This document shows, in pieces, positions 5,216-36,682 of a stretch of 46,349 nucleotides of DNA (position 1 is its first letter; the number at the start of each line of letters is the position of its first letter). Source of the stretch: a virus; IMG/VR virus record IMGVR_UViG_3300025525_000001; one strand, written 5' to 3'. The notes beneath the pieces were generated by a model. It saw only the letters and a program-made list of their open reading frames with translations. It searched no databases and was not told where the DNA came from. Position numbers and translations under genes: made by a program.

Positions 5216-5400
5216 AGCGGGGTCTTCGGTTTCGGCCGGCGGCAGACGTGGAACCCGCCACAGGCCGGGCAGCGATAGGTGTCGACGCCCTTGCCGTGCC
5301 AGGCCATGTTGCGAGCGGCGCGGATCGCGGCGGCTCCGTTGGGGAACCGCTCCTTACCCAAGCAGCTGGCCCCCTCGGCGTTGGTCGCGGATCGGGTCAT
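5197..5400 (-). CDS. Hypothetical small Zn-ribbon-like protein
   Basis: The internal ATG at 5400 is coupled (ATGA) to the GcrA-like stop. It contains YRCPACGGFHVC and encodes 67 aa. Confidence 0.55.
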   Translation of the reverse strand: MTRSATNAEGASCLGKERFPNGAAAIRAARNMAWHGKGVDTYRCPACGGFHVCRRPKPKTPLWRNKK

Positions 5401-5690
5401 CGGCGTTGTTCCGTGAAGCGCATCGGCAAGGGCCGGGCGGGCATCTCCGAACGCGACCAGACGCCTTGGCCGTACTGGTTGGCCAGCGGGCCCGGTTCCT
5501 CGGCGCGGTACAGAGCGCCGATCACCGCATTGCGGGTCCGTCCCAGCTTGCGGCCGATGGCGGTCGAGCCCCACCCCTTGCGGCGCAACCGGATTGCCAA
5601 GGCCAGCTCGGCGGCGGCCCACGGTCGGGACCAGACGAGGTCGCCGCCGCGGACGCTGACCCGTTCTCGGATTTCGTGGTGGGGGTTCAT
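5397..5690 (-). CDS. gcrA: GcrA-like DNA-binding protein (N-terminal GcrA domain only)
   Basis: W..AAAELALAIRLRRKGWGSTAIGRKLGRTRNAVIGALYR matches the GcrA N-terminal signature (W.dE....L..LW..G.Sa.qIA..LG..TRNAVIGK.hR), including the exact TRNAVIG heptad. It is 97 aa, versus about 170 aa for cellular GcrA as I recall it. Confidence 0.7.
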   Translation of the reverse strand: MNPHHEIRERVSVRGGDLVWSRPWAAAELALAIRLRRKGWGSTAIGRKLGRTRNAVIGALYRAEEPGPLANQYGQGVWSRSEMPARPLPMRFTEQRR

Positions 5691-5935
5691 CAGCCGACAG
5701 CCTTCGGGATGTCGTTGCGGAACAGGACCGTGACCTGGGGATCGAACAGGCTGTCGGCCAGGTACTGGACCGCCGGCACGGTGGTGCCGCCGTGGCGCAG
5801 CAGACGGATGTAGCCGCTGCCCCAGGCCGCGAAGACGTCTTCGCCGCGGCGGAACAGGGCGGCCTGCTTGAACACCCCCTTCGAGCGGAGGATGATCTGC
5901 GCCTCGGGCAGGTCGTGGAACAGGTTGTCGGTCAT
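5690..5935 (-). CDS. Hypothetical protein
   Basis: 81-aa ORF whose stop overlaps the next start by 1 nt (TGATG). Codon usage looks coding-like. Confidence 0.6.
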   Translation of the reverse strand: MTDNLFHDLPEAQIILRSKGVFKQAALFRRGEDVFAAWGSGYIRLLRHGGTTVPAVQYLADSLFDPQVTVLFRNDIPKAVG

Positions 5936-6304
5936 TCAGCTTGTCCTTTCAGCGATATACTTGTCGACAGCGGCAATGCTGTCGAGGGTGAAGACCGAGC
6001 AGCCCATGCTGCGCAGCTTGTCGTGCTCGCGGACCTGATGGTCTTCGAGCTTTCCGCCGGGCGCTTTCAGCTCGACGAAGTGTATGACGGCGGTGCCGGG
6101 CATCTCGGCCGCGATCTTGCGGGTAACGGCGGCGGCATAGTCCCGGGCCGTCTGATCGGGGATGGCGGTCTCGAACCGGAACCCCGGCCAGATCACCAGC
6201 CGATCCGGTGCGCCGCGGTGGCCGGGCCAGGTCATCTTCCTGACCAGGCCGCCCTTGGCGATGACCTGTTTGCGGAGGTGGGCTTCGACTACGGTTTCAC
6301 GCAC
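5936..6304 (-). CDS. VRR-NUC domain nuclease (PD-(D/E)xK)
   Basis: EAHLRKQV..., GAPDRLVI and FVELKAPGGKL..HQ give the typical VRR-NUC E...PD...ExK arrangement. Confidence 0.75.
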   Translation of the reverse strand: MRETVVEAHLRKQVIAKGGLVRKMTWPGHRGAPDRLVIWPGFRFETAIPDQTARDYAAAVTRKIAAEMPGTAVIHFVELKAPGGKLEDHQVREHDKLRSMGCSVFTLDSIAAVDKYIAERTS

Positions 6305-6306
6305 GG

Positions 6307-6498
6307 TCAGAAACCCATGATGTCGACGGTCTGGCCGGTAAACACGCAGCCATCTCGCTCGTGCGGGCCACGATAGCCTTCCTCACCATCGTCGAGCCTG
6401 ATGCCAGACGGCGTGACGAAGTCCGTGCGCTCCTGCCCGTTGTAGCCGGTGACGCGCGCAGTCTGCGGGTAGGTTTTCAAGGGACTTATATAGTTCAC
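6307..6498 (-). CDS. Hypothetical protein
   Basis: 63-aa ORF with a GTG start overlapping the upstream stop (GTGA). Confidence 0.5.
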   Translation of the reverse strand: MNYISPLKTYPQTARVTGYNGQERTDFVTPSGIRLDDGEEGYRGPHERDGCVFTGQTVDIMGF

Positions 6499-7028
6499 TC
6501 CCCTTCATCCTTCTTCGCCTTCCGTTCCTCGCGTTCGATCTTCTTCGCGACCTTCGCGGCGGCCTCGCCTTTGCCCTTCGGACGGTAGGCCAGAACGTGC
6601 GTCGTGAAGGCGTCGAGGGCTTTCAAAATCTCGACCAGTCCAGACAGAACGGTCGGGTCATTGCCACAAGCCTCACGGAGGCGTTGGAGCATGAACCACG
6701 CCGACTTTTGGGTCACGCCGATCTGCTTCGCCAGTTGCATCGAAGAGATGCCCTTGCGGGACGTGACCAGCAGATACATGGCGTAGAGCCACTTATGGAG
6801 GGGAATGTGCGACCGCTCGAAGATGGTCGCCGTGCGGACGGTGAAGTCGCTCTTACAGGCGTTGCAACGGTAGAAGCCGCCCTTGCGGGTCGTGATGCGC
6901 CTCGCCTCGCTACAGGCCGGGCAGACGGCTCCCTCGGGCCAACGCTTGCCCTCCATGTAGGCCCGCGCCGCTTCTGCGTCAGGAAACATCTCGAAAAGCT
7001 GGAAGGTGGAGATTGTGGACTTGCTCAC
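6495..7028 (-). CDS. IS1595-type transposase N-terminal Zn-ribbon/HTH protein lacking the DDE domain
   Basis: FPDAEAARAYMEGKRWPEGAVCPACS...YRCNACKSDFTVRTATIFERSHIPLHKWLYAMYLLVTSRKGISSMQLAKQIGVTQKSAWFMLQRLREA is the canonical IS1595/ISXO2 N-terminus. Similarity stops at ...GLVEI, where the DDE domain (VEiDEtyiGG) would begin. The GTG start at 7028 is coupled (GTGA). Confidence 0.7.
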   Translation of the reverse strand: MSKSTISTFQLFEMFPDAEAARAYMEGKRWPEGAVCPACSEARRITTRKGGFYRCNACKSDFTVRTATIFERSHIPLHKWLYAMYLLVTSRKGISSMQLAKQIGVTQKSAWFMLQRLREACGNDPTVLSGLVEILKALDAFTTHVLAYRPKGKGEAAAKVAKKIEREERKAKKDEGE

Positions 7029-7525
7029 TGAACAACATCCTTCGCGTCCCACGCCTTGGCCTCGCCGCAAGTGATGCAGGCGGCTTCCTCGACATGGGAG
7101 AGCGCGCCGCAGACGCACCGCTCGTAGTCGGTGGGCGCGAGCATCGCGCGGCCTTCGTCAGTGATGCGATAAACGTGCGGCTCATTCGCCTGAACGAGAA
7201 GCCCACGGCATTTCAGGAAGTATTGCGGGGTGCTGTAGGCGATGATCCACGGGCGGCCCATGTCATCGTATTTGGCGACGCGCGAGCCTCGCCGATCCCC
7301 GGCCCCGAAGCCGACAGCCCCACTGGACGAGCGGGCCGCAGCGGTGAGTATGAGAACCTGCGTAGGGGTCAGGCCCTTGATCCGGGGCATACGCGCGAGG
7401 CGCGGAGCCCGTTCGCGAGCGTGAATCTCCTGGAAGTTCGCCGAGTGACAAGCGGCGTGCCAGTTGTCGCCGCGCCTCAGTTGACCAGCAATGATGGGTT
7501 GGTCACACCCGCGACAGGCCGTCAT
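7025..7525 (-). CDS. Putative DNA-binding protein (winged-helix core flanked by Cys clusters)
   Basis: N-terminal CRGCDQ...WHAACH, a central MarR-like pattern (LTPTQVLILTAAA...YRITDEGRAML) and C-terminal CVCG...CITCG. An AAGGA RBS lies upstream. Confidence 0.5.
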   Translation of the reverse strand: MTACRGCDQPIIAGQLRRGDNWHAACHSANFQEIHARERAPRLARMPRIKGLTPTQVLILTAAARSSSGAVGFGAGDRRGSRVAKYDDMGRPWIIAYSTPQYFLKCRGLLVQANEPHVYRITDEGRAMLAPTDYERCVCGALSHVEEAACITCGEAKAWDAKDVVQ

Positions 7526-7528
7526 GGT

Positions 7529-7711
7529 TTAAATCCTTGTTTGACGGGGACAATCCCCGTGCACAAGTAGATATATACCCTCATTGTCCGAGGGAGTCAA
7601 ATATATAATTCCCGTTTTCAACAGCTCGATCAAGTCGGCCACCGTCATGTGGCCCTGCGCGTTAAACCGGGTTTCCAGCTCGGTGCGCTTTGCTTCTTGT
7701 CTCTTGGTCAT
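7529..7711 (-). CDS. Hypothetical 60-aa protein (contains the AT-rich island)
   Basis: The ATG at 7711 is coupled (ATGA) to the DNA polymerase stop. The longer 195-aa track ORF is an Arg-rich upstream extension that overlaps polA. Confidence 0.5.
   Translation of the reverse strand: MTKRQEAKRTELETRFNAQGHMTVADLIELLKTGIIYLTPSDNEGIYLLVHGDCPRQTRI
7572..7600 (-). promoter_or_regulatory. Consensus-like sigma70 promoter TTGACT-N17-TATATA with a palindromic spacer
   Basis: On the minus strand: TTGACT (7600-7595), a 17-nt spacer CCCTCGGACAATGAGGG (CCCTC/GAGGG arms) and TATATA (7577-7572). The GGGGACAATCCCC hairpin (7546-7558) and an AAGGA RBS lie downstream, before the ATG at 7525. Confidence 0.45.
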
Positions 7712-9663
7712 TTCCGATACCTTTGTCCTTCCCACCCCGAAGCGGCCAGCGGAAGGCCGGTCGCCCAAGGGGGTACGGTTGACATCGTGGCACACAACCA
7801 ATCGCTTGAAAACCCCTTTTCGTCGAGTGTCTCGGCGACCAACTCGTCGTGCACGCCGAGAACCAAGCGGTAACCTGCTGCCTCGGCCTCGGGCATATTC
7901 CAAGCCAGCACGTCGCGGGCCCCACCTTGCGTCGCGTTCTCCGCGAGCTTGCCTCCGTAGGTGGTGATGCGTTCCCACTTTCGCGTGTAAATGTTGTGGC
8001 CCATGTAGGTCAGCTTGCCGTCCTCGACGGCGACGCCGGGGTAGCAGAGCACGCGGCCTGACGGCAGGCGCATCCGCAGCCAGGTGCCGTCCCGCTGGAA
8101 GACGATCTTGCCGCACGGCACGCGGCGACCAGGTGACAACGCGGCTTCGATAGCCGCGTCATTCATAGCGTACCAGAACTTGACGATGGCGGGGTTAGCT
8201 TTGCGCCATCCTTTTACTATTTCCAACACGCGCTTTTCAGATAGCTCGACCCCGTATAGCGCAGCCATACTGGTAAAGGCCCCGACAGCCCCTTGGAAAC
8301 CTAGGGCGAGTTCTTGCACTTTTCCAATCAAGCGCATGATGCCGCCCGCTTCCTCATCCGCGATTACCTCTTCGATACTTACTCCGAAGGACCGCGCGTA
8401 GCCGAGGATGTAGAGGTCGTCACCCTTGGCGAAGGCGTCGAGCTTCCACTGTTCGCCAGCCAACCAGGCGAGTAACCGCCCCTCGATGTTCGACAAGTCG
8501 GCCGAGATCATCTTGTAGCCGGGGGCTACGGTCAGCGCGCCACGGATGCAGGCCGAGGCCACCTCCATGACGTTGTCGTAGACCAGGTCCGTGCAGCGCG
8601 CCTTGATCGAAGCGATGCCGGGTTCGATCTCGTTCTTCAGGTGCTTCGGACAGCGGGGCAGATTTTGTGGTTGGAAAAGTCGTCCTGCCCAACGACCGGT
8701 TCGCGAGGCTCCGCAGAACTGCAACGTTCCGCGCAGCCGCCCGTCGCTGGACGTCGAGCGGATGAGCGCCTTGTATTTCGTGGTCGAGGTGGTGCTGGTC
8801 ATGAGCCTGACCCGCAGCAGCTCCTTCAGGGGGTCCGGCAGGTTCTCATCGGCCAGCCGCCTTTCGATGGTGGCCTTGCGCATATCGGGGAGATCGACAC
8901 CGTACTCGGCGAGGATATGCGCCAGCATCCTATCACGCTGGCTGGCCTTCTCAACGTCGTCGCCGGTCAGCTCTTTCGTTCGCTCATCGTAGCCAGTTTG
9001 AGCCAGCCCGACGGTGTCCACAGCGGCCTCGGCCAGCGCCAGATCGACGGCGACGCCCCGGTCGTTGATCTTCTGGTCTAGCATCCACAGCTCGCGCTCA
9101 CGCTGGTTGCCGGGGTAGTTCCACTTGGGCAGGCGCTTGCGCACCTCGCGCATCGAGACGATGTCCGAGCCGGCGTAGTCGAGGAACCGCTGCCACTCGA
9201 CGGGGTGGGTGTGGCGCGTCGCGCGCCTGATCTTCTGGTTCTTGGGGCGAGGTTTGCAGAAGAGCTGCACCAGCGCCTTGCCCGCCTTGTGCTTCGACAG
9301 GTCCACGGGCACGCCGAGGATCGAGCAGAGGGTGTCGAGCGACCCGGGCAGGCTGTGCGCCAGGGCCTGGACCATCGTGTCCACGACCTTCTCGACGGGC
9401 ATCTCGTAGCCCCAGGCGTGGCGCAGGACGGTGCGGTCGAAGGCCGAGTTGTGCCAGACCTGCTCCTCGGCGGCGTCGGCCGCGGCCAGGGCCACCTTGA
9501 CCTTGTCCTCCCAGCCGGGCGCGGTGCAGTCGATCACCTCGACCTCGCCCTCGTCCACGGCCCAGGCGAGGATCGTGATCTCGACCTTCTCGGCGTAGCG
9601 GTGGAGGCCGTGGTTCAGCGGCACCTCGCAATAGGTCTCTGTATCCCCGAAAAAGGTGGTCAT
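7708..9663 (-). CDS. Family-A DNA polymerase with 3'-5' exonuclease domain
   Basis: Exo I FGDTETY; motif A ISADLSNIEGRLLAW; motif B RLIGKVQELALGFQG; motif C LGVHDELV. The internal ATG at 9663 is coupled (ATGA) to the upstream stop. The N-terminal 53 residues of the track ORF are an Arg-rich extension. Confidence 0.9.
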   Translation of the reverse strand: MTTFFGDTETYCEVPLNHGLHRYAEKVEITILAWAVDEGEVEVIDCTAPGWEDKVKVALAAADAAEEQVWHNSAFDRTVLRHAWGYEMPVEKVVDTMVQALAHSLPGSLDTLCSILGVPVDLSKHKAGKALVQLFCKPRPKNQKIRRATRHTHPVEWQRFLDYAGSDIVSMREVRKRLPKWNYPGNQRERELWMLDQKINDRGVAVDLALAEAAVDTVGLAQTGYDERTKELTGDDVEKASQRDRMLAHILAEYGVDLPDMRKATIERRLADENLPDPLKELLRVRLMTSTTSTTKYKALIRSTSSDGRLRGTLQFCGASRTGRWAGRLFQPQNLPRCPKHLKNEIEPGIASIKARCTDLVYDNVMEVASACIRGALTVAPGYKMISADLSNIEGRLLAWLAGEQWKLDAFAKGDDLYILGYARSFGVSIEEVIADEEAGGIMRLIGKVQELALGFQGAVGAFTSMAALYGVELSEKRVLEIVKGWRKANPAIVKFWYAMNDAAIEAALSPGRRVPCGKIVFQRDGTWLRMRLPSGRVLCYPGVAVEDGKLTYMGHNIYTRKWERITTYGGKLAENATQGGARDVLAWNMPEAEAAGYRLVLGVHDELVAETLDEKGFSSDWLCATMSTVPPWATGLPLAASGWEGQRYRK

Positions 9664-10265
9664 ACGAGGTCTCGCCCGTCGAGGTGCAGATGTTTGACGA
9701 ACTTGTGTTTGCCGTAAGCGCCGACCAACCTGTGCCCGAGCGCCTCCATCTCGGCCTTGGTGCGAGTGCGACCTGGGTTCCCGGTTCGGGTGGCGATCTG
9801 CCGGCCTTCGCTGTTTTCCCAACGCGCGTTGACCGAAGAAACGCCGCAGTATCCCCAGCCTGTTGCGCGGTAAATGCCGCCTGTGTGCTCCATAAACTGA
9901 TCGGCGTAAGTCACCAGCGAGACGTAACGGCGGTCGGCTTCGACCAGCCTTATGCTTCGAGCCATAAGAAATGATGCGCCGTTCTTTGGCACATCAGGGT
10001 GTACCGCAAGGCGAGACAACGCGAGCACGCGCTTATACTCGGAAGGGTTGACGCTCTTTCCTACCACGGACAAGCAAGGCATCCACCAAGCTACACCCAT
10101 AATCCGGTCGCTGCCGCGCCGGTATAGGCCGTGCATGAACACGCAAGTGTTGGCCCCACCCTTGGCGTAGTGGTGCTCGGTTATGAACGCCCGGCCTTCG
10201 GAGAACCCGACGCTGCGCACTTCCCACTCGGCCTTCCGCAGCCGGTCTTCGTAACCCTCGGTCAT
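9660..10265 (-). CDS. Mom-like GNAT-fold protein (putative DNA base-modification enzyme)
   Basis: GRAFITEHHYAKG...MGVAWW...VLALSRLAVHPDVPKNGASFLMARSIR...VSLVTYADQFMEHTGGIYRATGWGY matches my memory of the Mom-family pattern (A..FI..HHY..., eLsRl, nseS.fl, lvsyaD..gH.G.iY.A.gw). The ATG at 10265 is coupled (ATGA). Confidence 0.45.
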   Translation of the reverse strand: MTEGYEDRLRKAEWEVRSVGFSEGRAFITEHHYAKGGANTCVFMHGLYRRGSDRIMGVAWWMPCLSVVGKSVNPSEYKRVLALSRLAVHPDVPKNGASFLMARSIRLVEADRRYVSLVTYADQFMEHTGGIYRATGWGYCGVSSVNARWENSEGRQIATRTGNPGRTRTKAEMEALGHRLVGAYGKHKFVKHLHLDGRDLV

Positions 10266-10855
10266 CGGTTCTTGCCCCGGCGGCTCCGCAGACGGGTCCA
10301 GGTCCACCCGAAGGCGTGCTTGGACACGCCGCCCGCGGCGTTCTTCACGGCCACAGCCCACTTCGGCTCGCTGCTGCCGGTCAGGCACCGCGCCGCCTCG
10401 GTGGTGGTCATGAAGTAGAGCACCTGGTCCCCGCGCCGGGCTTCGAGCGCAGCGTCCTCGGCGGCGATGTCGACGTAATAGCTGCGCGGCTTCTCGATGT
10501 CCGGCGTCTTGCCAGCGTGGCCCTTGCCGGGCCCGGTGCGGGGTTGCCGCAGGTCTTCGCGGTCCACCGACCCCTCGATCCTGTGCCGGGCGTCCTTGGC
10601 CAGCAGGATCGCCCGCAGCGCCTCGGCGCGGGCCAGCCGATCAGGATGAGGATCGCCTGTCGCCTCCGGCGGAAGAGGGCGGCCCGGCGGCTTGCGGTTA
10701 GGAAAGGAGGCATAACCCCGCCCGCCGAAACCCTGATCCAAGCCAGCTTGCACTTCGGGCAGTTTGGAGGTCGAGGTGCCCCGATCAAACACCGGAATAT
10801 CTCTGGCGCTGTACGGGTGGGCGTTACCCGCCCTGTAAACGTACTCTCGTGACAT
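10262..10855 (-). CDS. Hypothetical protein
   Basis: 197-aa ORF with the AAAAGGACAAG RBS motif 5 nt upstream of the ATG. The C-terminus (YFMTTTEAARCLTGSS...GWTW) looks like a small HTH module. Confidence 0.6.
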   Translation of the reverse strand: MSREYVYRAGNAHPYSARDIPVFDRGTSTSKLPEVQAGLDQGFGGRGYASFPNRKPPGRPLPPEATGDPHPDRLARAEALRAILLAKDARHRIEGSVDREDLRQPRTGPGKGHAGKTPDIEKPRSYYVDIAAEDAALEARRGDQVLYFMTTTEAARCLTGSSEPKWAVAVKNAAGGVSKHAFGWTWTRLRSRRGKNR

Positions 10856-10880
10856 AAGCTCTTGTCCTTTTAGGCAGTCG

Positions 10881-10900
10881 GGGCGGCCCGAAGACCGCCC
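10881..10900 (-). other. GC hairpin in the only sizeable gap of the early block
   Basis: gggcgg (10881-86) pairs with ccgccc (10895-900) around an 8-nt loop. No U-run follows on the minus strand. It sits between the SSB stop and the next RBS. Confidence 0.35.
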
Positions 10901-10908
10901 TCCCTGCG

Positions 10909-11634
10909 TTACGCCAGGTCGTCGGCGTCAGCGCCTTCGACAACGTCGAAGTCGTCGGCGCTGGCCGGCGTGCCGCCCGAGAAGGCGTCGCCGTCCCTGA
11001 CGAACTGCAGCGCCTTCAGCTCGGCGCGCAGCGCCTTGCCGTAGTTGTTCTGCTGCGCCCAGATTTCGATCTGCAGGTTGGCGTAGCAGCCAGAGTAGGG
11101 CCGACCGTCGGCGGCGACCAGCGGCGTGCGGTCCTTGTCGATCAGCAGCGGCCGGGTCTTGGACTTGGCCGAGATATAGTAGCTGTCCTCGAACCCGTCG
11201 TAGGGCTCGCCGTCGCCGTTTTTGTAGGGCTCCTTGACGAAGGGAACCTCGATGGTCTTCGGCTTGCCGAGCTTGGTCAGGCCGTCGAAGATGGCCTGGC
11301 CCTTGGCTCCCCACTTCTCCTTAGCGACCTGGAGCATGGCGGCGTCGAGCGCGGCGACGGTCTTCTTGTCGGCCGGGTCGACGATGAACTTGCCGTTGTA
11401 GGCGGGCGGGCCGCCCTCGAAGCTAGTGGCCTCGAAGACGTTAAGGAACGCACAACGGACGGGAACGATGATTTTCATGACTTCTCTCTTGAACATTTCC
11501 GGGTGAAGAGCACGGACACGGGCTGTGGCCTGCTCGATGGCGATCCGACGGTCCATAGACCCCGGCTCGCCGATGGTTGCTGCCTTCTTCAATATCTCCT
11601 GTGCTGCGGCGGGCAGCTCGCCAATACGCTTCAT
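10909..11634 (-). CDS. Single-stranded-DNA-binding protein (DUF2815 type)
   Basis: From MKIIVPVRCAFLNVFEA... onward the protein shows the DUF2815 pattern, with an acidic C-terminal tail (DDFDVVEGADADDLA). An alternative start at 11478 would remove a 52-aa N-terminal extension. Confidence 0.75.
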   Translation of the reverse strand: MKRIGELPAAAQEILKKAATIGEPGSMDRRIAIEQATARVRALHPEMFKREVMKIIVPVRCAFLNVFEATSFEGGPPAYNGKFIVDPADKKTVAALDAAMLQVAKEKWGAKGQAIFDGLTKLGKPKTIEVPFVKEPYKNGDGEPYDGFEDSYYISAKSKTRPLLIDKDRTPLVAADGRPYSGCYANLQIEIWAQQNNYGKALRAELKALQFVRDGDAFSGGTPASADDFDVVEGADADDLA

Positions 11635-11638
11635 GCGA

Positions 11639-11728
11639 CTAGCGCACCGGAAGCACGGTGTCGAGCACGTCGAGCACGAGGCGGGCGGCCCCGTACACAG
11701 CGAACAGGATGACGATGATCTCGATCAT
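11639..11728 (-). CDS. Micro-ORF: 29-aa hydrophobic peptide
   Basis: Read by hand as MIEIIVILFAVYGAARLVLDVLDTVLPVR*. It exactly fills the gap between 11732 and 11634 (3-nt and 4-nt spacers). It is below the ORF-track size cut-off. Confidence 0.4.
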   Translation of the reverse strand: MIEIIVILFAVYGAARLVLDVLDTVLPVR

Positions 11729-11731
11729 CGG

Positions 11732-11947
11732 TCAGCGCGTCGGGTAGGGTTCGATGGAGCGCGCGTCGATAGTGCAGTTGCTCACCGTCGCGTAGTTGAT
11801 CGACACGCCTTGCTGGAAAACCGTCAGCGCGTGGCGGATCGTTTCCTGCTCGGCGTTCGCCGCCATGATGGAAATGATGGCGTCGGCCAGAGGCTTCGCA
11901 GCATCTTTGATGTTGGACGAGCCGTCGATGTGGATGCCGGTTTGCAT
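11732..11947 (-). CDS. Hypothetical protein
   Basis: 71-aa ORF in the early block with an ATG start. Confidence 0.55.
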   Translation of the reverse strand: MQTGIHIDGSSNIKDAAKPLADAIISIMAANAEQETIRHALTVFQQGVSINYATVSNCTIDARSIEPYPTR

Positions 11948-11960
11948 GGTGTGGGTCCTC

Positions 11961-13217
11961 CTAGACCAGGTCCGAGCCGTCGTCGATGACGGCGAAGTCG
12001 TCGGCGGATGCCGCGACGCTGATAGCAGGCCTGCCGTCCGTCACCGGGGCGACAGAGGGCTTGCCCTGGTTCTGGGCGTACTGCGCCTGCAGCTTCTTCC
12101 ACTGGCGCTCGCCGATCCGCCCGGCCTTGTAGAGCTTCTCGGCGGTGGTGGGCGAGATCAGCTTGAAATCAAACATCTCGTCCTGCTTCAGCCTCATCGA
12201 CTTTAGCTGGAGTTGGGCCTCGTCCTCGTTGATCCACTTGCGGTGGCCCTTCTTGCCCTCGACCAGTTTATAGCCGGGGACTTCGCGGCCAGCGACCAGA
12301 CGGCGCTCCACCTCGGCGCGGACGGACTTGACCCACCCCTCGATCAGGTCAGCCTTGTCCATCGCGAAGGCCAGGTAGTCGTCGCTGGCCGTCTCGTCCA
12401 CGGTGACGCTCTCGACGGTCAGGTCGGAGAAGTCGTCGGCCGTGGCCGCAGCGGTGACCGCCGTCGAGCGGACTTCCTGGGCCAGGGCGGGACAGACCGA
12501 CTTGGCCTTGCACCACTGGCATTGGCTCTCGCCGGGCACCAGCGACAAGGCCAGCCGGTCGTCCTGCTCGAACTGCGCCACGGCCACCTTGGCGGCGACA
12601 CGGGCGGTGACCGCGAAGTACTCCAGGTCTTCGACCGGCAGCTCGTAGGTGCTCGGCGTCATCGAGACCTTCGGCTGGAAGATGGTCAGCACCACGCGGG
12701 TTATGTCGTAGGCCAGCGAGACGGCGTCGAGCGCGCCCAGGCCGTAAAGCATGAGCTGCTTGTTCTCTTCGGCGTCCACGAACCGCCGGCCGTATTTCAG
12801 GTCCACAACGTGCAGGGTGTCGTCGACCACGACCAGGGTGTCGGCGGTGCCGAAGCAGTCCGGCTGTTCGAGGTGGCGTGACAGGTCGACCTTCTGCTCG
12901 GGCAACAGCACGCCGCCGAGACCGCGGACGTAGTCACAGTATCCCTGGACACCCTCGATCATCTCCTCGTCGACCTCGAACTTGCGCCCGCTGTCCTCGA
13001 CCTCGATCAGGCGGCCGGCGTAGGCGCTCGCGTCCTGGCCGGTGGTCAGGCACCAGTCCAGCAGCTGGTGGGCGGCGGTGCCCTCGTCAGCGTAGACGCT
13101 GCCGGTGTTGGGGAACGGCGCTTCGAGCTTGAGCGAACCCGGGCAGGCCATCCAGCGGTGAGCGCCAGAGGGCGAGAGGCGAGCGTGCGCCTTGGTGACG
13201 GTCAGGTTATCGGTCAC
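11961..13217 (-). CDS. PD-(D/E)xK exonuclease, DUF2800/Cas4-like with a 4-Cys cluster
   Basis: HARLSPSGAHRWMACPGS, VVDLKYG and CQWCKAKSVC give one N-terminal plus three C-terminal Cys, as in Cas4/AddB Fe-S nucleases. The GTG start at 13217 is preferred because homologues begin near the HA.LS.S motif. The track ORF extends to 13280. Confidence 0.75.
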   Translation of the reverse strand: MTDNLTVTKAHARLSPSGAHRWMACPGSLKLEAPFPNTGSVYADEGTAAHQLLDWCLTTGQDASAYAGRLIEVEDSGRKFEVDEEMIEGVQGYCDYVRGLGGVLLPEQKVDLSRHLEQPDCFGTADTLVVVDDTLHVVDLKYGRRFVDAEENKQLMLYGLGALDAVSLAYDITRVVLTIFQPKVSMTPSTYELPVEDLEYFAVTARVAAKVAVAQFEQDDRLALSLVPGESQCQWCKAKSVCPALAQEVRSTAVTAAATADDFSDLTVESVTVDETASDDYLAFAMDKADLIEGWVKSVRAEVERRLVAGREVPGYKLVEGKKGHRKWINEDEAQLQLKSMRLKQDEMFDFKLISPTTAEKLYKAGRIGERQWKKLQAQYAQNQGKPSVAPVTDGRPAISVAASADDFAVIDDGSDLV

Positions 13218-13383
13218 GGGATTGCGCCGTCCAGATGAGGCCCAAGCTGTTGACGAGGAGGCCAACCATGAGGACACCATCCATCACGTCGGGCTTCGGC
13301 AGCAGGACTTGGGCGAACATGGCGATGACGCCAATTACCCCAAAGGCGACGCCGCTCGCGAATATCTTGGGCACAAGGTTCAT
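13207..13383 (-). CDS. Micro-ORF: 58-aa two-TM membrane protein
   Basis: Read by hand as MNLVPKIFASGVAFGVIGVIAMFAQVLLPKPDVMDGVLMVGLLVNSLGLIWTAQSRDR*. The ATG at 13383 is coupled (ATGA) to the upstream stop. The gene is absent from the ORF track. Confidence 0.5.
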   Translation of the reverse strand: MNLVPKIFASGVAFGVIGVIAMFAQVLLPKPDVMDGVLMVGLLVNSLGLIWTAQSRDR

Positions 13384-13643
13384 GGTCTTTGGCTCCTGCG
13401 GTTCGAGTGGTGGGCGGGCGTCGCGGTCAGGGTGTCGCCGCGCTCGATGCCTAGTTTGACCAGTTTGCGCAGCACCTGTTTGCGTTCGCCCCGGGTGAGG
13501 GGGATGTCCTGGTCGCCTACGCGGATCAGCTTGACGTTGCCCTTCGGCGCGGGGGCCGGACGCCGGGGGGCGTCCTTTACCAGGTCCGCGCCGAAGATCA
13601 TCGCGCCGCCCGACGGGCTGTTCATACCGCGGCGGTTATTCAC
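13380..13643 (-). CDS. Hypothetical protein
   Basis: 87-aa ORF with a GTG start overlapping the upstream gene by 8 nt. An alternative ATG lies at 13625. Confidence 0.5.
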   Translation of the reverse strand: MNNRRGMNSPSGGAMIFGADLVKDAPRRPAPAPKGNVKLIRVGDQDIPLTRGERKQVLRKLVKLGIERGDTLTATPAHHSNRRSQRP

Positions 13644-16502: not shown

Positions 16503-16994
16503 ATGAGCGACCAATCCCAACCCGCAGACACGGCCGGAGAGGCGGTGGCTTGGGTCTCGAGAACCGTTCTGGCTCGACTGGCTGAAAGCGACAAGGGGTG
16601 CGAGACCGCCAATCTTTGGAAAAGCCAACCGACCAAGGAGAGCGTCGCCCTCTACGCCCATCCAAGGGCAGAGGCTCCTTCCGTAGTAGGGGCGCTGGAA
16701 ATGGCGCGGGCTTTCATCATCGACCAATATTCGTGCGCGGAGTCGTCTGCTTTGGCGGGCGACCCTATCAGTGAGGAAGCCCGACCTGTCCGCGACGCGC
16801 TGTGCGCAGCGCTAGCCGCCCTTTCATCAGCAGAAGGTCAGGGTTCATCCTCGGCTCTGGACCATCTGATAGACGAGGCATTCGACGCCGGGCCGCAACA
16901 ACCCGCATATGGGCCGTTGACCCCCGAACCAGGAGCTAACAGCCCAGATAATGGTGGTTCCGCTGCGCCGTTCAAGAATGGGGCGGGGGAATGA
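16503..16994 (+). CDS. Hypothetical protein, first gene of the rightward block
   Basis: 163-aa ORF preceded by GCGAAAAGGACAAAGCTG-ATG. It has an ATGA overlap with the methyltransferase gene. Confidence 0.65.
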   Translation: MSDQSQPADTAGEAVAWVSRTVLARLAESDKGCETANLWKSQPTKESVALYAHPRAEAPSVVGALEMARAFIIDQYSCAESSALAGDPISEEARPVRDALCAALAALSSAEGQGSSSALDHLIDEAFDAGPQQPAYGPLTPEPGANSPDNGGSAAPFKNGAGE

Positions 16995-17719
16995 TCTGCG
17001 ACCTGCGGTTCGGAGACTGCCTCGACCTGCTGCCGGCACTGGCGGACAAGTCTGTCGACCTCGTGCTGGCCGATATGCCTTACGGAACAACCCGGTGCGC
17101 GTGGGATGTCCAGATAGACCTGCAGCGTCTCTGGCCTGAACTCCGGCGGGTGTGTCGCGGGGCTATCGTCCTGTTCGCGCAGTCACCCTTCGACAAGGTG
17201 TTGGGTGCGTCCAACCTGCCGATGCTCCGCTACGAGTGGATATGGGAGAAGACCAACGCCACCGGACATCTGAACGCAAAGCGGGCTCCGATGAAGGCGC
17301 ACGAGAACGTGCTTGTCTTCTATGATGGCCGCCCGACCTACAACCCGCAGATGACGACCGGCCATGCGCGCAAGGTGGCCAAAAGCAAGTCCCGAGAGGC
17401 CTCGGTCGTATACGGCGAGCAAAGCCGTCTAGGTAGCTACGACAGCACCGAGAGATACCCGAGATCGGTGCTTACCTTCGCCAGCGACAAGCAGCGGTCG
17501 AAACTGCACCCGACGCAAAAGCCCCTTGGGCTGTGCGAATATCTTGTGCGGACGCACAGCAATCCCGGCGACACAGTTCTCGACTTCTGCATGGGGTCGG
17601 GAACAACCGGCGCTGCCTGCCAGAACCTCGGCCGTCGCTTCATCGGCATTGAATCCGATGCCTCCCACTTCGCCACTGCAGCCACGCGCCTTGGCGTCCA
17701 AACGGAGATCGCAGCATGA
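16991..17719 (+). CDS. DNA methyltransferase, beta-class N6-adenine/N4-cytosine (N6_N4_Mtase family)
   Basis: Motif IV DMPY (LADMPYG) lies N-terminal to HPTQKP and motif I FCMGSGTTG, which is the beta-class order also seen in CcrM. The protein is 242 aa. Confidence 0.85.
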   Translation: MICDLRFGDCLDLLPALADKSVDLVLADMPYGTTRCAWDVQIDLQRLWPELRRVCRGAIVLFAQSPFDKVLGASNLPMLRYEWIWEKTNATGHLNAKRAPMKAHENVLVFYDGRPTYNPQMTTGHARKVAKSKSREASVVYGEQSRLGSYDSTERYPRSVLTFASDKQRSKLHPTQKPLGLCEYLVRTHSNPGDTVLDFCMGSGTTGAACQNLGRRFIGIESDASHFATAATRLGVQTEIAA

Positions 17720-18938: not shown

Positions 18939-19213
18939 CCGACCAGTACAAGGAACCGCTGCGCGCCCGGCCTGACCCTCGCGACGAGGAGGTCCGGCTC
19001 GCTGGTCTTGTAACGGGCGGCGAGAGCCCCCGGCCGCCGCGCTACAGGCCTTACGAGGCGGTCAAGGAGAAAGACCTGACCGGCCGTATTGCGGCCCCGG
19101 GTCTGATGTTCAAACCTGACGCTCCGCGGGGCCGCAAGGTGCCGATGCCCAACGAAGGCCCTGCCCAGGCGTGGCCGGGCAAGTATCCCTCCGAACCCCG
19201 CCGCAAGGACTGA
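18935..19213 (+). CDS. Hypothetical basic/Pro-rich protein
   Basis: 92-aa ORF with a GTG start coupled (GTGA) to the upstream stop. Confidence 0.5.
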   Translation: MTDQYKEPLRARPDPRDEEVRLAGLVTGGESPRPPRYRPYEAVKEKDLTGRIAAPGLMFKPDAPRGRKVPMPNEGPAQAWPGKYPSEPRRKD

Positions 19214-19215
19214 CG

Positions 19216-20004
19216 GTGCAAAAGGACAATCTCATCGCGGCGCTCCAGCCGCTGGTTAGCCGTGCCCAGCCGAAGATACTGGACCTGTTCTGCGGCGCGG
19301 GCGGCGCGGGCATGGGCTACTCACTGGCCGGCTTCGACGTGTACGGCGTCGATCTGCTGCCTCAGAAGCGATACCCCTTCGCCTTCCACCAAGGCGACGT
19401 GATCGCGGTCGTGGAGGGGCTTCTCCGGGGCGAGCGCGTCGCCTTCACCCACCCGGGCGGGACAGTCGAGCACCTCTCGCTCACGGACTTCGACGCGATC
19501 CACGCCTCGCCGCCCTGTCAGGCGCACACGTCGCTGAAGTCGATGCATAACGCCAAGCAGCACCTCGATCTGGTCCCCGCGACTCGGCGTTTCCTTGATG
19601 ACGCGGGGGTGCCATGGATCATCGAGAACGTCGTTGGTGCTCCCCTGATTGACCCGGTAGTGCTTTGCGGCACGATGTTCGGCCTTGGTGTCTCCGACGC
19701 GGAGCTTCGCCGGCACCGCTTGTTCGAGGGGAGCTTCCCGCTCTTCGCGCCCCGCTGCCAGCATGGGAAACGGCCCCGAACAACTACCCGGCCGCGGACC
19801 ATCGGCATCTACGGGGAGGGGTGCCGCGACAGCCGGCGCAAGTTCGACAAGACGATCCCGGAGTTCACGGTCGTGGACGCGCGTGTCGCCATGGGCATCG
19901 ACTGGATGACCCTGGCCGAACTCTGCCAAGCCATCCCACCCTCGTATACCGCTTGGCTTGGCCGCCAAGTGCTCGACCAAATCCGGTTCGGAGACCTCGC
20001 ATGA
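19216..20004 (+). CDS. DNA (cytosine-5)-methyltransferase
   Basis: Motif I LDLFCGAGG, motif IV HASPPCQ (catalytic Cys), motif VI IIENV and RRHRLF. The GTG at 19216 has AAGGA 6 nt upstream. The protein is 262 aa. Confidence 0.85.
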   Translation: MQKDNLIAALQPLVSRAQPKILDLFCGAGGAGMGYSLAGFDVYGVDLLPQKRYPFAFHQGDVIAVVEGLLRGERVAFTHPGGTVEHLSLTDFDAIHASPPCQAHTSLKSMHNAKQHLDLVPATRRFLDDAGVPWIIENVVGAPLIDPVVLCGTMFGLGVSDAELRRHRLFEGSFPLFAPRCQHGKRPRTTTRPRTIGIYGEGCRDSRRKFDKTIPEFTVVDARVAMGIDWMTLAELCQAIPPSYTAWLGRQVLDQIRFGDLA

Positions 20005-22232
20005 GCGGCCTTGTAGAAGCTCTGCAGCCGCTGGTCAGCCGTGCTCGGACGGACGTGACCGCCATCAAGGCCTCGACCGGCATGGCGTGGACCCGGGAGG
20101 CGCTGACCGAAGTCCGGTTGAAGCGCCACCTGGACGGCACGATGCCCCGCGGCGTCTGCCCCATCAAGGCCGGGGAGAGCACCACCCGCATTGCCCTGTT
20201 CGACCTGGACAGCCACAAGGGGGCGACCAGCTGGGAGGAGATGTCAGGCGTGGCCTCGCGGCTTGCGGGGTCGCTTGAAGCCGAAGGCTTCCATCCGGTG
20301 CTGTTCCGCTCGACTGGCGGCAGGGGCATCCACATCTTCTTGGTGTGGAACGAGCCCCAGGACGCTTACTCTGTGCGCCGCTGCATGGACCACTTCCTCG
20401 CCTCCTTGGGTTTCGGGAACGGCGCGAAAGGGGTGGCCAACGGGGAGATCGAGGTCTTCCCCAAACAGGACAGCGTGCCCGAGCACGGCTTCGGCAACCA
20501 GTTCATCCTGCCCTTGGCCGGCAAGTCCGCGCCGCTGGAGCCGATGCTCAACTACGAGGTGATGCCCCGCGAGTATGCGCTGAAGCTGGAGTGGAAGCCC
20601 TCGGCCCCGGTGCCAGTGGTCGAGAAGCCCGAAAGGCAGCTGCGGGCTATGGACGATCAGCTTGCCGAGGCTTTCTGGTTCGGCGCGGAAGGGCCGGTGC
20701 CTAAGCTCCGCGAGGCCCTGGCCGCCATCCCCAACGACACCGATCCGCTGGGCTATGACGAGTGGCGCGACATCGTCTCGGGCATCCACCACGCCACCAG
20801 CGGCTCGGACGAGGGCTATCAGCTGGCCTATGAGTTCTCGTCCCGGGCCCCGCACTTCGATGAGGACGAGCTGGCCATCAAGGTCTGGGCCTGGCTCGAC
20901 CAGAAGGGCGAGACCGCCAACCCGATCACCGAACGCACCGTCTTCGCCAAGGCCCGCGAGCACGGGTGGGCCGACCAGGCATCGCCTGACGACTTCGAGG
21001 ATTTGACACCGGCGCTGCGCGAAGAGCAGGTCGATCTCCCCCTCCCCGGCTTCCAGCGTGATGGCAACGGCCGGATCGAGGCTGTCCTCGGCAACGTCCG
21101 ATCCGCTTTGTTGAGGCCAGACGTCTGCGGCATGGACCTTCGCTTCGACGAGTTCCGCTTCGAGATCGTCTTCGCCGACGTCGAGCACCCGGGCAAGTGG
21201 CTGGCCTTCAAGGACCACCACGCGGTCGAGCTGCGCCTGACCCTGGAGCGGATGGGCTTCAAGCCGGTCGGCCGCGAGCTGATGAGGGACGTGGTCAACT
21301 ACGTCGCCCAGCACAACGTCGTCGACACGGCCCAGGTCTGGCTGGACAGCCTGAAATGGGACGGCGTGTCGCGGGTCGGCCGCTTCTACGAGACCTACTT
21401 CGGCGTCGCCCCCTCGCCCTATAGCAGGGCGGTGTCGCGCTACACCTGGACGGCGATGGCTGGCCGCGTGCGCGTGCCCGGGGTCCAGGCCGACATGGTG
21501 CCCATCGTCACCGGGAGCCAGGGCCAGCGCAAGACAAGCGGCATCGTGGCCATGGTCCCCAACGACACCTTCCGCGAGCTGTCGTTCCACCAGTCCGAAG
21601 AGGACCGGGCCCGGCTCATGCGCGGGTGCCTGATGGTTGAACTCGCCGAGCTGTCGGGCCTCAAGACCCGGGAGAACGAACAGATTAAGGCCTGGATCAC
21701 GCGGCGCAAGGAGGACTGGACACCGAAGTACCAGGAGTTCGCCGTCTCCATGTGGCGGCGGTGCGTCATGCTGGCGACGTCCAACCCGACCGACCTGCTC
21801 GACGACCCTACAGGCGCTCGGCGGTGGTTGCCGATGGCGTCGGGGAACGTGGGTGTCGAGGGCATCGCCCGGGACCGCGACCAGCTGTGGGCCGAGGCCG
21901 ATGTCCTGTTCGCCGCCGGCGGCGTGGACTGGCGCGAAGCCCAGGCCCTGGCAGAGGACGAGCACGAGGCTTACCGCGTTGTCGATGGGTGGGAAGAGGC
22001 CATCGAACGGTGGCTTGAGACCCCCGAGCTGGACGGGTTGCTGCCCTACCCGTACGGCTTCACCACGCACCAGGCCCTGGTCGAGGGGCTCAGTTTCCGC
22101 GAAAACGCAATAAAACGCATGGACGAGACCCGTATGGCGAAGGCGCTGAAGGCCTTGGGCTACACGCAAAAAGTTACAAGAAGGAACGGGAAAGGGTTGA
22201 GACTGTGGGTCGGCAACGGACGGCAATGGTAG
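20001..22232 (+). CDS. Bifunctional primase-polymerase / VirE(D5)-type helicase
   Basis: ATG at 20001 (ATGA junction). Prim-pol motifs ALFDLDSHKG and GGRGIHIFLVW; a PriCT-like segment (WRDIVSGIHHATSGSDEGYQLAYEFS); a P-loop VTGSQGQRKTSG in a VirE-like C-terminal half. Confidence 0.85.
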   Translation: MSGLVEALQPLVSRARTDVTAIKASTGMAWTREALTEVRLKRHLDGTMPRGVCPIKAGESTTRIALFDLDSHKGATSWEEMSGVASRLAGSLEAEGFHPVLFRSTGGRGIHIFLVWNEPQDAYSVRRCMDHFLASLGFGNGAKGVANGEIEVFPKQDSVPEHGFGNQFILPLAGKSAPLEPMLNYEVMPREYALKLEWKPSAPVPVVEKPERQLRAMDDQLAEAFWFGAEGPVPKLREALAAIPNDTDPLGYDEWRDIVSGIHHATSGSDEGYQLAYEFSSRAPHFDEDELAIKVWAWLDQKGETANPITERTVFAKAREHGWADQASPDDFEDLTPALREEQVDLPLPGFQRDGNGRIEAVLGNVRSALLRPDVCGMDLRFDEFRFEIVFADVEHPGKWLAFKDHHAVELRLTLERMGFKPVGRELMRDVVNYVAQHNVVDTAQVWLDSLKWDGVSRVGRFYETYFGVAPSPYSRAVSRYTWTAMAGRVRVPGVQADMVPIVTGSQGQRKTSGIVAMVPNDTFRELSFHQSEEDRARLMRGCLMVELAELSGLKTRENEQIKAWITRRKEDWTPKYQEFAVSMWRRCVMLATSNPTDLLDDPTGARRWLPMASGNVGVEGIARDRDQLWAEADVLFAAGGVDWREAQALAEDEHEAYRVVDGWEEAIERWLETPELDGLLPYPYGFTTHQALVEGLSFRENAIKRMDETRMAKALKALGYTQKVTRRNGKGLRLWVGNGRQW

Positions 22233-34025: not shown

Positions 34026-34538
34026 ATGTGCAACCCGATGGCGATCATGGGGATGCAGGGGGCGGGTGCCGCGGTGGGAGCCATCGGGGCCTACGGCGGC
34101 GCGAAGTCACAGAAAAGCGCCCTCAACTTCCAGGCCCAGATGTCGGACCTGAACGCGCAGCTGGCCGAGCGCCGCGCGCAGATTTCGCTTGAGCAGGGCG
34201 CGTACCAGGCCGCCGAGATCGAGAGGGGCGGGGCCCGGCTGAAGGGCTCTCAACGGGCGGCTCTCGGGGCGCGCGGTGTGGCGCTCGACAGCGGCACCGC
34301 CGTGGCGATCCAGGCAGGCACCGATGCGGTTACGCAAGAGGATGCCCGGCAGGCGCGGATCAACGCCGTGCGCGAAGCCTGGGGGCACCGCTATGACGCC
34401 GCCAACCAGAAGAACCAGGCCGGGGCGTCCCGGGCCAACGCCAAGGGCATCAACCCGATGGGCGCGGCGGGCACGTCGCTGCTGACCAGCGCGACCAGCA
34501 TGGCGTCCAGCTACTACGGGATGAGGAAAGCAGGCTGA
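34026..34538 (+). CDS. Internal virion protein (Gly/Ala/Gln-rich, starts MCNP)
   Basis: 170-aa ORF within the ejection-protein block with a hydrophobic Gly-rich N-terminus. Confidence 0.55.
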   Translation: MCNPMAIMGMQGAGAAVGAIGAYGGAKSQKSALNFQAQMSDLNAQLAERRAQISLEQGAYQAAEIERGGARLKGSQRAALGARGVALDSGTAVAIQAGTDAVTQEDARQARINAVREAWGHRYDAANQKNQAGASRANAKGINPMGAAGTSLLTSATSMASSYYGMRKAG

Positions 34539-36682
34539 TGGCCCGCATCGTCATCAACGACCAGCGCCGCGTCGCCCCGGGCCAGGCCCCGGGCAGCTTC
34601 GCCGCGCCTGACGCCAGCCAGGGCGCGGACTTCGCCTCGCGCCAACTGCAGCAGGTCGGACAGGGCATCCAGCAGGCTGGCCAGCTGGCCGGTCAGATTT
34701 ACGCGGCCGAGCGCGAGAAGATCAACGAGACCCGGGTCAACGACGCCATCAACCGCGCGCAGCGCGAGGCGCTGGACCTGCGCAGCGAGTACACGCCGTT
34801 GCAGGGCGAGGCTGCGCTGCGGGTCGGCGAGACCGAGGAGAGCGTCGACCAGGTCTACGCGCCCCGTTTCGAGCGCCGCCTCGGCGAGATCGCCGACGAG
34901 CTGGGGCTCACCGCAGTCCAGCGTGCGCGCTATCAGGAGCGCGCCCAGCCGCTGGCCCTGAACTTCCGCGCGGGCGTGACCAACCATTTCCTGGCCCAGA
35001 ACGAGAGTTACCAGGCCGAGGTCGCCGCGTCCGGCATAGCGGTCGAGCAGCAGACCATTCTCGGCGATCCGCTCAACGCGGAGGTCACCGGCGCTTCCAT
35101 CGCCCGCATCGAGGAGCTGGTCGCCGCCGACGCCGCCCGCCGGGGGTTGAGCGCCGAGGGCACCGCGCTCGCCAAACAGGAGTTCGTCGGCAAGGCCTTC
35201 CTCGAAGCGATCATCGCCACCGAGGACGAAGACCTGCAGGGCGCGCAGGACATCTACGACACCCACCGCGACCGGATGACGGCGACGCAGCAGAACGCCG
35301 CGCGCAACGCGCTGGGCGCGGGCGTCGCCACGCAGAACGCCACCTCGTGGGTTGCCGCCCGGTTCGCGGGCACGCCCGCCCCGCCCCCGGGAGCGCCCGG
35401 CGGCACCTATCAACATCCGGTTCCCGGGGCTCGCCGTTCGTCGCCCCACGGAAACCGCGTCCACCCGATCAGCGGCGGCGTCAAGATGCACGACGGTGTC
35501 GACTACGCCGCGCCGGCCGGATCGCCTGTCCGCGCCATCGCCGCGGGCCGCGTGGTGCGCGTCGGGCCCAACGGCGGCTACGGCAACTTCGTCGAGATCG
35601 ACCACGGTAACGGTGTCGTCACCGGCTACGCGCACCTGCAGGACTTCGATGTCGCGGTCGGCGATGAACTGGCCGCCGGGCAGAACCTGGGCCGCGTGGG
35701 CTCGACTGGCGACAGCACAGGCCCGCATTTGCACCTCCGTGCCCGTCGGGACGGACGAAGCATCGATCCCGAGACCCTGATCGGCCAGAACGCAGAAGCC
35801 GCCGCGGCGCAGGCTGGTGCGGGCCGCCCGACCCGCGCCCAGCTGGAGCGCGAGGCCGCCGCCGAGTTCGGCAACAACCGGATCGCGCTGGCCGCGGCCC
35901 GGGCCGAGATCGCCCGCGCCTACGGCCTGGAGGAAGCCGAGAAGCGTGAGCGCGAGGAGGCCGCCCGCGACACGGTTTTCCGGCACATGGAACAGACCCG
36001 CACCGCGCCGACGGCGGCGATGATGGCCGCCCTGCCGCCGGGCATGGTCAACACGGTGAACAACTACCTGGAGGCCCTGATCGCGCCGCCGACCGTGCGC
36101 AGCGACCCGAACCTGCTGCTGGCCCTGGCTGCGAACCCGGAAGCCGTCAAGGAGATGCTGCCCGAAGAGATCGTCGCCAACTACGGCCAGCGGCTCACGT
36201 CCAGCGATCTCATCAGTTTGGTGGGCACCTCGGCCCGGGCCGGCGTCGCCGCGCAACAGGAGGCGGCCACCGCCGCCCACGTCCCGCAACAGGCCTTCTC
36301 CTCGGCCTGGACCCTCGCGCTGGACGTAGCGGGTATCGACCGCACGCCGTCGGGCCGACGCGCCGACAGCGACCGACAGGCGCTGGCCCAACTGAACGTG
36401 GCCGTGCGCGAGGCGATCATCGAGCGCCAGCGCGGGCTCGGCCGCCAGCTGACCCGCGAGGAGATCAGCGAGGAAATCCAGACGCGACTTGGCCGCTTGG
36501 TTTGGGAGCGTCCGCAGGGTATCTTCACGCCCTTCGCTGCGGGCTACCAGACGTCGTACGAGACCATGACGCCGCGGAACCAGGTTGATTTCCGCACCCG
36601 GGCGCGCGAGCGGTTGGGCCGTAACCCGACCAACGACGAAATATACGCCGAGTACATCCGCGACCGCATCAGGGGACGTTAA
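34538..36682 (+). CDS. Internal virion protein with M23 (LytM-type) peptidoglycan endopeptidase domain
   Basis: HPISGGVKMHDGVDYAAPAGSPVRAIAAGRVV...GYGNFVEIDHGNGVVTGYAHL...GSTGDSTGPHLHL carries the HxxxD and HxH zinc motifs of M23 peptidases (about nt 35400-35780). Confidence 0.85.
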   Translation: MARIVINDQRRVAPGQAPGSFAAPDASQGADFASRQLQQVGQGIQQAGQLAGQIYAAEREKINETRVNDAINRAQREALDLRSEYTPLQGEAALRVGETEESVDQVYAPRFERRLGEIADELGLTAVQRARYQERAQPLALNFRAGVTNHFLAQNESYQAEVAASGIAVEQQTILGDPLNAEVTGASIARIEELVAADAARRGLSAEGTALAKQEFVGKAFLEAIIATEDEDLQGAQDIYDTHRDRMTATQQNAARNALGAGVATQNATSWVAARFAGTPAPPPGAPGGTYQHPVPGARRSSPHGNRVHPISGGVKMHDGVDYAAPAGSPVRAIAAGRVVRVGPNGGYGNFVEIDHGNGVVTGYAHLQDFDVAVGDELAAGQNLGRVGSTGDSTGPHLHLRARRDGRSIDPETLIGQNAEAAAAQAGAGRPTRAQLEREAAAEFGNNRIALAAARAEIARAYGLEEAEKREREEAARDTVFRHMEQTRTAPTAAMMAALPPGMVNTVNNYLEALIAPPTVRSDPNLLLALAANPEAVKEMLPEEIVANYGQRLTSSDLISLVGTSARAGVAAQQEAATAAHVPQQAFSSAWTLALDVAGIDRTPSGRRADSDRQALAQLNVAVREAIIERQRGLGRQLTREEISEEIQTRLGRLVWERPQGIFTPFAAGYQTSYETMTPRNQVDFRTRARERLGRNPTNDEIYAEYIRDRIRGR

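Follow-up and report, generated by a model that had tools for sequence, protein, structure and literature searches.

A Mom-family gene coupled to the DNA polymerase gene in the replication operon of an environmental phage

Does a gene that lies directly in front of a phage DNA polymerase gene encode an enzyme that modifies the bases of the new DNA? We addressed this question for a 201-amino-acid (aa) open reading frame (ORF) in IMG/VR virus record IMGVR_UViG_3300025525_000001, a stretch of 46,349 nucleotides (here called the window; 66% G+C) that appears to be a complete phage genome of ~46 kb. The original prediction had assigned the protein to the family of the Mom protein of phage Mu, and had proposed that it modifies phage DNA in order to evade restriction. 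We find that the gene is a distant but genuine relative of Mu Mom. It is moreover probable, though well short of certain, that it encodes a functional Mom enzyme, which would take glycine from the host's Gly-tRNA(Gly) to N6 of selected adenines, yield N6-carbamoylmethyl-deoxyadenosine (N6-carbamoylmethyl-dA) and thereby block restriction.

Family membership and integrity of the gene

The ORF (9660..10265) runs on the minus strand from an ATG at 10265..10263 to a TGA at 9662..9660; its coordinates had been given exactly, with the strand left unstated. All three motifs quoted earlier are present in the translation: FITEHHYAKG (residues 27-36), LSRLAVHPDVPKNGASF (83-99) and LVTYADQFMEHTGGIYRATGWGY (117-139). 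An alternative upstream start exists (GTG at 10388), but we prefer the ATG because homologues start at the same point and because the longer reading overlaps the upstream gene. The N-termini that support this choice are MTAGYEDRLRKAEW in the closely related locus L013 (IMG/VR UViG_3300033068_001184) and MTDGYEDRLRKADW in protein P0026.

This family assignment is borne out at the level of profile hidden Markov models, sequence and fold. With the Pfam Mom model (PF25680), whose gathering score is 27.1, the protein reaches 88 bits over residues 14-172 (E = 8.9e-25), and PHROG 1384, labelled "Mom-like DNA modification protein", matches residues 10-193 (E = 1.9e-28). Among all PDB sequences only 8bv8, the "methylcarbamoylase Mom" of phage Mu (Mup55), matches credibly (E = 1.3e-4), and alignment by hhalign of a profile of 26 clade members to Mu Mom gives a probability of 96.9%. 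An AlphaFold2 model built on the clade alignment (pLDDT 91.1, pTM 0.82) adopts the fold of the GCN5-related N-acetyltransferases (GNAT). When this model is compared with the PDB using Foldseek, the best matches are again 8bv8_B and 8bv8_A (E = 1.2e-11, template modelling score (TM) 0.69-0.74); the next GNATs, for example RimI and phosphinothricin acetyltransferases, follow at E >= 4e-6 and a TM of ~0.5. In the viral structure library BFVD the model comes closest to an uncultured Caudovirales protein (TM 0.83) and to the "Mom" of Salmonella phage FSL SP-031 (TM 0.77).

Given the GNAT fold, it might be argued that the protein does not act on DNA at all, and that the target of its acylation is instead a host protein, a small molecule or a charged tRNA (as for the TacT and AtaT toxins) during early host takeover. 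Many GNATs indeed appear in the fold search, the operon is of an early or middle type and not a late one, and Mom-fold domains are also found fused to unrelated domains (RadC, NUDIX and, in BFVD, endonuclease-like proteins). Still, we consider this explanation improbable. At E <= 1 the ORF matches no Pfam family besides Mom, acetyltransferase and toxin families included, so that the GNAT likeness is seen at the fold level only, and a PADLOC search with the ORF returned no match. The Mu Mom structure is clearly a better match than the other GNATs, and the gene is repeatedly found amid genes for DNA replication and repair. Furthermore, the Mom-specific arginine (Mu R111), which is conserved among Mom homologues and not across GNATs (PMC7261163), corresponds to R85 of the window protein and is invariant in the 124 full-length representatives of 50%-identity clusters on which all our conservation counts are based (124/124). 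The tRNA-using proteins FemX, L/F-transferase, MprF and PacB share the GNAT fold and an aminoacyl-tRNA donor with Mom, and the acetyl-CoA GNATs (RimI, PAT/BAR) share the fold, but neither group has a sequence-family match to the window protein at E <= 1, and their acceptors are peptides, lipids and small molecules, not DNA. A match to the NCBIfam XF1762 family (35 bits against a cut-off of 50) is below threshold and was discarded as uninformative. As expected for a nucleic-acid binder, the protein is, like Mu Mom, basic, with an isoelectric point of 9.7 (10.1 for the C-terminal 52 residues).

The gene is under purifying selection: relative to the L013 homologue (92% identical) the synonymous divergence dS is ~0.73 and the nonsynonymous divergence dN ~0.05, giving a dN/dS of 0.07. 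Its base composition (G+C 60.4%; G+C at third codon positions (GC3) 0.72) is lower than that of the flanking replication genes (GC3 0.81-0.90), which suggests acquisition from a foreign source of lower G+C and not decay. The same composition, together with the different slots that the gene takes in different phages, could be seen as the mark of a decaying or non-functional passenger, such as a recently acquired moron without a role. This reading is already disfavoured by the low dN/dS at substantial dS, by the intact ORF with all family-invariant residues and a confidently predicted fold, and by the coupling to both neighbours that is conserved in L013 (described below); we hold it to be very improbable.

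In terms of novelty the gene is an ordinary addition to a large, catalogued and widely annotated family. Our searches yielded 669 word-sharing homologues in 90% clusters, 1,240 representatives of 50% clusters at E <= 1e-3, and 166 cultured-phage records with a match; the published survey lists >8,000 predicted homologues in metaviromes and 9,647 sequences in a similarity network (PMC13219725). With thousands of homologues already mined and curated models in existence, the picture of the family is unchanged.

Active-site residues and the predicted modification

The original prediction had named methylcarbamoylation by an acyltransferase-fold protein. The family stands, whereas the chemistry needs to be updated. 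Mu Mom alone moves glycine from Gly-tRNA(Gly) to adenine N6 of double-stranded DNA, post-replication and in an S-A-S context, and the glycyl adduct then becomes N6-carbamoylmethyl-dA (6-NcmdA) through a rearrangement on the base; the donor is thus not acetyl-CoA (PMC13219725). In the crystal, Mu Mom is a dimeric GNAT with a helix-turn-helix (HTH)-like insertion (~175-209) whose deletion abolishes activity, and AlphaFold 3 modelling in the same study has this segment, which separates beta6 from beta7, lying in the major groove of the DNA. The proposed active site consists of H58, Y59, R111, S124, D149, R151 and Y159 (Silva et al. 2026, PMC13219725). The R111A, S124A and R151A mutants are dead or nearly so, and W48A (dimerisation) and W181A are strongly impaired (PMC13219725). 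Karambelkar et al. 2020 (PMC7261163) describe the same Mu residues with a numbering shifted by 10.

We aligned the window protein with Mu Mom, six cultured-phage Mom-like proteins and members of its own clade. Six of the seven proposed active-site residues are kept: besides R85, these are H32 and Y33 (Mu H58 and Y59; 123/124 and 122/124 representatives), S98 (Mu S124; S in 108 and T in 13, hence S/T in 121/124), D122 (Mu D149; 122/124) and Y132 (Mu Y159; 122/124). The exception is R151, which is replaced by F124. This position is variable among the 124 representatives (W in 26, S in 20, G in 19, R in 19, A in 15 and F in 5), and none of the six cultured-phage homologues has an arginine there (0/6). 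R151 is thus not a family-defining position, and given this variability we rejected the change to phenylalanine as a sign of inactivity. Three residues after F124, within the motif A-D-x-x-x-G-H-x-G-x-I-Y, the window protein carries H127 where Mu has R154, and a histidine is found here in 121/124 representatives. Mu is atypical of its own family at both positions, and the clade-wide swap of R151 and R154 for a variable residue and an invariant histidine provides a concrete target for mutagenesis. Between beta6 and beta7 the window protein has a basic insertion (around residues 154-177); the Pfam match ends at residue 172.

If the enzyme works as we favour, it would bind duplex phage DNA together with the 3' CCA end of the host Gly-tRNA(Gly) and would move the glycyl group onto the exocyclic N6 of selected adenines, after which the adduct would rearrange on the base to N6-carbamoylmethyl-deoxyadenosine. 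The bulky group may then block many host restriction endonucleases. Mom would act alone, without a partner gene; like Mu mom, the gene forms a single-gene module that has no biosynthetic partner. Transcribed and translated within the replication/recombination operon, it would be made during synthesis of new DNA, and its modification would be added to N6-adenine and C5-cytosine methylation. An active enzyme would thus give this high-GC environmental phage three masking layers, namely N6-methyladenine, 5-methylcytosine and a bulky adenine adduct. If the enzyme shared the S-A-S context of Mu, 6,747 adenines would qualify, which is 43% of those on both strands.

Several observations weigh against this reading. 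The window protein is only 19% identical to Mu Mom (201 against 241 aa), and its F124 stands at the position of R151, whose alanine mutant in Mu showed no detectable activity. Neither W48 nor W181 of Mu is conserved (W48 aligns to S22, and the window model is a monomer). The beta6-beta7 insertion is ~7 residues shorter than that of Mu and contains one short predicted helix (170-175) and not an HTH-like pair. No tRNA gene was found in the window when tRNA-Gly was sought, so that the donor tRNA would have to be the host's. Mu mom is toxic and restricted to late infection (PMC7261163), whereas the window gene is placed in a replication operon. For the ~200-aa clade that includes the window protein, a literature search turned up no biochemical experiment on any member; the Mu-type activity is known only for Mu Mom and two metagenomic homologues (PMC13219725).

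Part of these differences might indicate that the protein has the family and fold of Mom and a chemistry of its own: the donor could be another aminoacyl-tRNA or an acyl-CoA, the context or the base could differ, and the product would then not be N6-carbamoylmethyl-dA. Such an explanation would account for the low identity, for the loss of a Mu-essential arginine at a position that varies across the clade, for active-site surroundings that differ systematically from Mu (H127 for R154), and for a shorter and differently shaped insertion in the part of the protein that the Mu model puts in the major groove. According to the authors of PMC13219725, moreover, co-substrate and substrate are not predictable from structure alone. 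The same study nonetheless reports activity in the Mu assay for two metagenomic homologues picked at random, and in the window protein the most important Mu residues (R111, S124, D149, H58/Y59 and Y159) are all kept, with no adjoining auxiliary biosynthetic gene that could supply another donor. We therefore regard a different chemistry as possible but rather doubtful. It is also conceivable, though we think it unlikely, that the ~200-aa clade as a whole (H127, no R151, shorter insertion) constitutes a functionally distinct Mom branch that modifies DNA during its synthesis, maybe from another aminoacyl-tRNA or in another context, and produces an adduct that has not been described.

The closest relatives of the window protein are 'Mom family' proteins of ~200 aa encoded by environmental phages and prophages, among them those of L013, of a Sphingomonas sp. 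RB3P16 prophage (P0085) and of Ralstonia phage C22 (locus L002, OR538033.1; protein C22_00016). They are 46-92% identical to it, agree with it in length and share its invariant residues, H127 among them. In these relatives, L013 and L020 excepted, the gene occupies other slots, and no activity has been reported for them. More distant are the Mom-like proteins of other cultured phages (Listeria A511/P100 group, Staphylococcus PMBT8, Corynebacterium Stickynote, Halogranum HGTV-1 and Vibrio EniLVp02; PHROG 1384), which retain the same invariant core at 25-29% identity but belong to different clades, with larger genomes and different neighbourhoods; we found no characterisation of these proteins in the literature.

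The C22 homologue (8953..9561, 46% identity) is the closest one in a cultured phage. It is annotated only as 'hypothetical protein', a label that could be changed to Mom family. Its neighbours, as read from the sequences, are an integrase-like gene and a small ORF of HTH-like character, both likewise hypothetical in the record. Proteins P0252, P0166, P0176 and P0203 combine a Mom domain with RadC/JAB, with NUDIX or with a 3-dehydroquinate synthase, or have it as the C-terminal part of an 856-aa chain. In BFVD the model also aligns, at a query-normalised TM of 0.64-0.69, with a portion of proteins of ~500-560 aa from large myoviruses (Campylobacter CP21, Pseudomonas PA5oct) that are named 'endonuclease-like' or 'homing endonuclease'. 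These fusions are heterogeneous and some may be gene-calling artefacts; they were not used as a clue to function.

Coupling to the polymerase gene and gene neighbourhoods

Directly downstream of the Mom gene lies a family A DNA polymerase gene (polA; 7708..9663, minus strand, 651 aa), identified by Pfam DNA_pol_A and PHROG 17 (E = 5.4e-116), the product of which is 52% identical to the polymerase of Bordetella phage BPP-1. The two genes overlap, as had been noted before, in an ATGA at 9663..9660 on the minus strand (polA ATG 9663..9661, Mom TGA 9662..9660), and the polymerase N-terminus MTTFFGDTETY matches MTTLYLDCETF of L013. A second ATGA, previously unmentioned, is found at the other end of the gene (10265..10262, minus strand), where the TGA of the upstream 197-aa ORF (ORF197; TGA 10264..10262) overlaps the Mom ATG. 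Mom is thus translationally coupled on both sides within the operon. The 4-nucleotide overlap with polA recurs in L013 (mom 5902..6507, polA from 6504) and in L020 (mom 5977..6591, polA from 6588), and the overlap with the upstream ORF in L013 (ORF 5240..5905, mom from 5902), so that L013 shows the same order of ORF197, Mom and polA, joined by both ATGA overlaps.

The proposal that Mom is co-expressed with replication agrees with this layout and coupling. A promoter and terminator scan of 7-17 kb of the window gave signals no better than those of shuffled sequences; as independent evidence it argues neither for nor against transcription as one unit, and it is the layout that speaks for co-expression. 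The setting differs from that in Mu, where mom lies at the end of the genome, is expressed late under the control of Dam, C and Com, and is overlapped by com. At the window locus mom is instead placed between the genes for a single-stranded DNA-binding protein (SSB) and for the polymerase, and the Mu-type com-mom layout (overlapping zinc-finger com, late position) was not found: there is no com-like translational activator, and ORF197 takes the upstream place.

ORF197 (10262..10855, minus strand; GC3 0.81) is 68% identical to its L013 counterpart over ~130 residues of its C-terminal two thirds, and it holds one cysteine. Searches with it against Pfam, PHROG, NCBIfam, PADLOC, PDB and cultured phages returned nothing, and among the loci surveyed it is conserved in L013 only, not adjoining Mom elsewhere. 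We therefore take it neither for an analogue of Com nor for a cofactor of Mom in general. Its C-terminal ~50 residues (VLYFMTTTEAARCLTG...HAFGWTW) resemble by eye what we take to be NUMOD1-type DNA-binding modules of homing endonucleases.

How general the link to the polymerase is can be seen from a survey of 46 related loci. A homologous polA is present at <=6 kb from the Mom gene in 11/46 and directly adjacent in 5/46, with Mom directly upstream in L013 and L020 and directly downstream in L018, L023 and L048. Elsewhere the gene is found beside an SNF2 helicase gene; in Ralstonia phage C22 it adjoins the integrase-like gene, and in the Sphingomonas prophage it is surrounded by tail genes. The coupling to polA is consequently a trait of the lineage of the window phage and not of the Mom family, and the link of Mom to the replication module recurs without a fixed slot. 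An all-against-all BLASTP comparison of the flanking proteins of four loci gave no conserved partner gene beside Mom, which fits the single-enzyme pathway shown for Mu. The recurrence of Mom-family genes inside exonuclease-SSB-polA-SNF2 replication modules contrasts with the late, toxic and tightly gated mom of Mu. Overall, the interest of the locus is modest and lies in its place in a replication operon with coupling to polA, in the swap at R151 and R154, and in the pairing with two methyltransferases.

Methyltransferases and other features of the genome

Both DNA methyltransferases that had been claimed besides the Mom gene are present, on the plus strand. The first (16991..17719) is of the N6-adenine type (beta-class, CcrM-like; Pfam N6_N4_Mtase E = 2.2e-27, PHROG 67), with a partial, sub-threshold match to NCBIfam CcrM. 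The second (19171..20004) is a probable C5-cytosine methyltransferase, with PHROG 363 (E = 2.1e-33) and the motifs FCGAGG, SPPCQ and IENV in its translation, and no Pfam match at 1e-3. Together with a primase/VapE helicase gene they take up the region of 17-22 kb. The primase/VapE gene is listed as a long ORF (19665..22232) that overlaps the C5-cytosine methyltransferase gene, and its real start is probably near 20000.

The leftward replication/recombination operon that contains Mom covers ~3.5-13.3 kb on the minus strand. In order of transcription it holds the exonuclease, SSB, ORF197, Mom and polA genes, followed by more genes down to an SNF2 helicase. The exonuclease (11961..13280, minus strand) is of the DUF2800 PD-(D/E)XK type (Pfam PF10926/PF12705, PHROG 69), and the SSB (10909..11634, minus strand) is of the Enc34/gp2.5 type (Pfam PF10991, PHROG 112); a 71-aa ORF lies between these two on the same strand, within 10909..13280. 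A megablast search with positions 7000-14000 gave no match among cultured phages, and the phage is known from metagenomes only; a protein identical to its Mom is recorded on a contig of 46,365 bases.

Further down the same operon, a 207-aa ORF (6495..7118, minus strand) contains an IS1595-type transposase zinc-ribbon domain (PF12760, E = 7.7e-11); the catalytic domain of a transposase was not detected in it. The GTG start listed for this ORF overlaps the preceding 166-aa ORF (7025..7525), and given this overlap the true start probably lies further downstream.

The remainder of the genome is a rightward structural module (22.9-44.3 kb, plus strand) with terminase, portal, major head protein and tail protein genes. 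At its end a 714-aa protein with peptidase/endolysin-like domains (34538..36682) precedes a 2,531-aa ORF (36689..44284, plus strand), which matches PHROG 9880 (function unknown) with 1262 bits.

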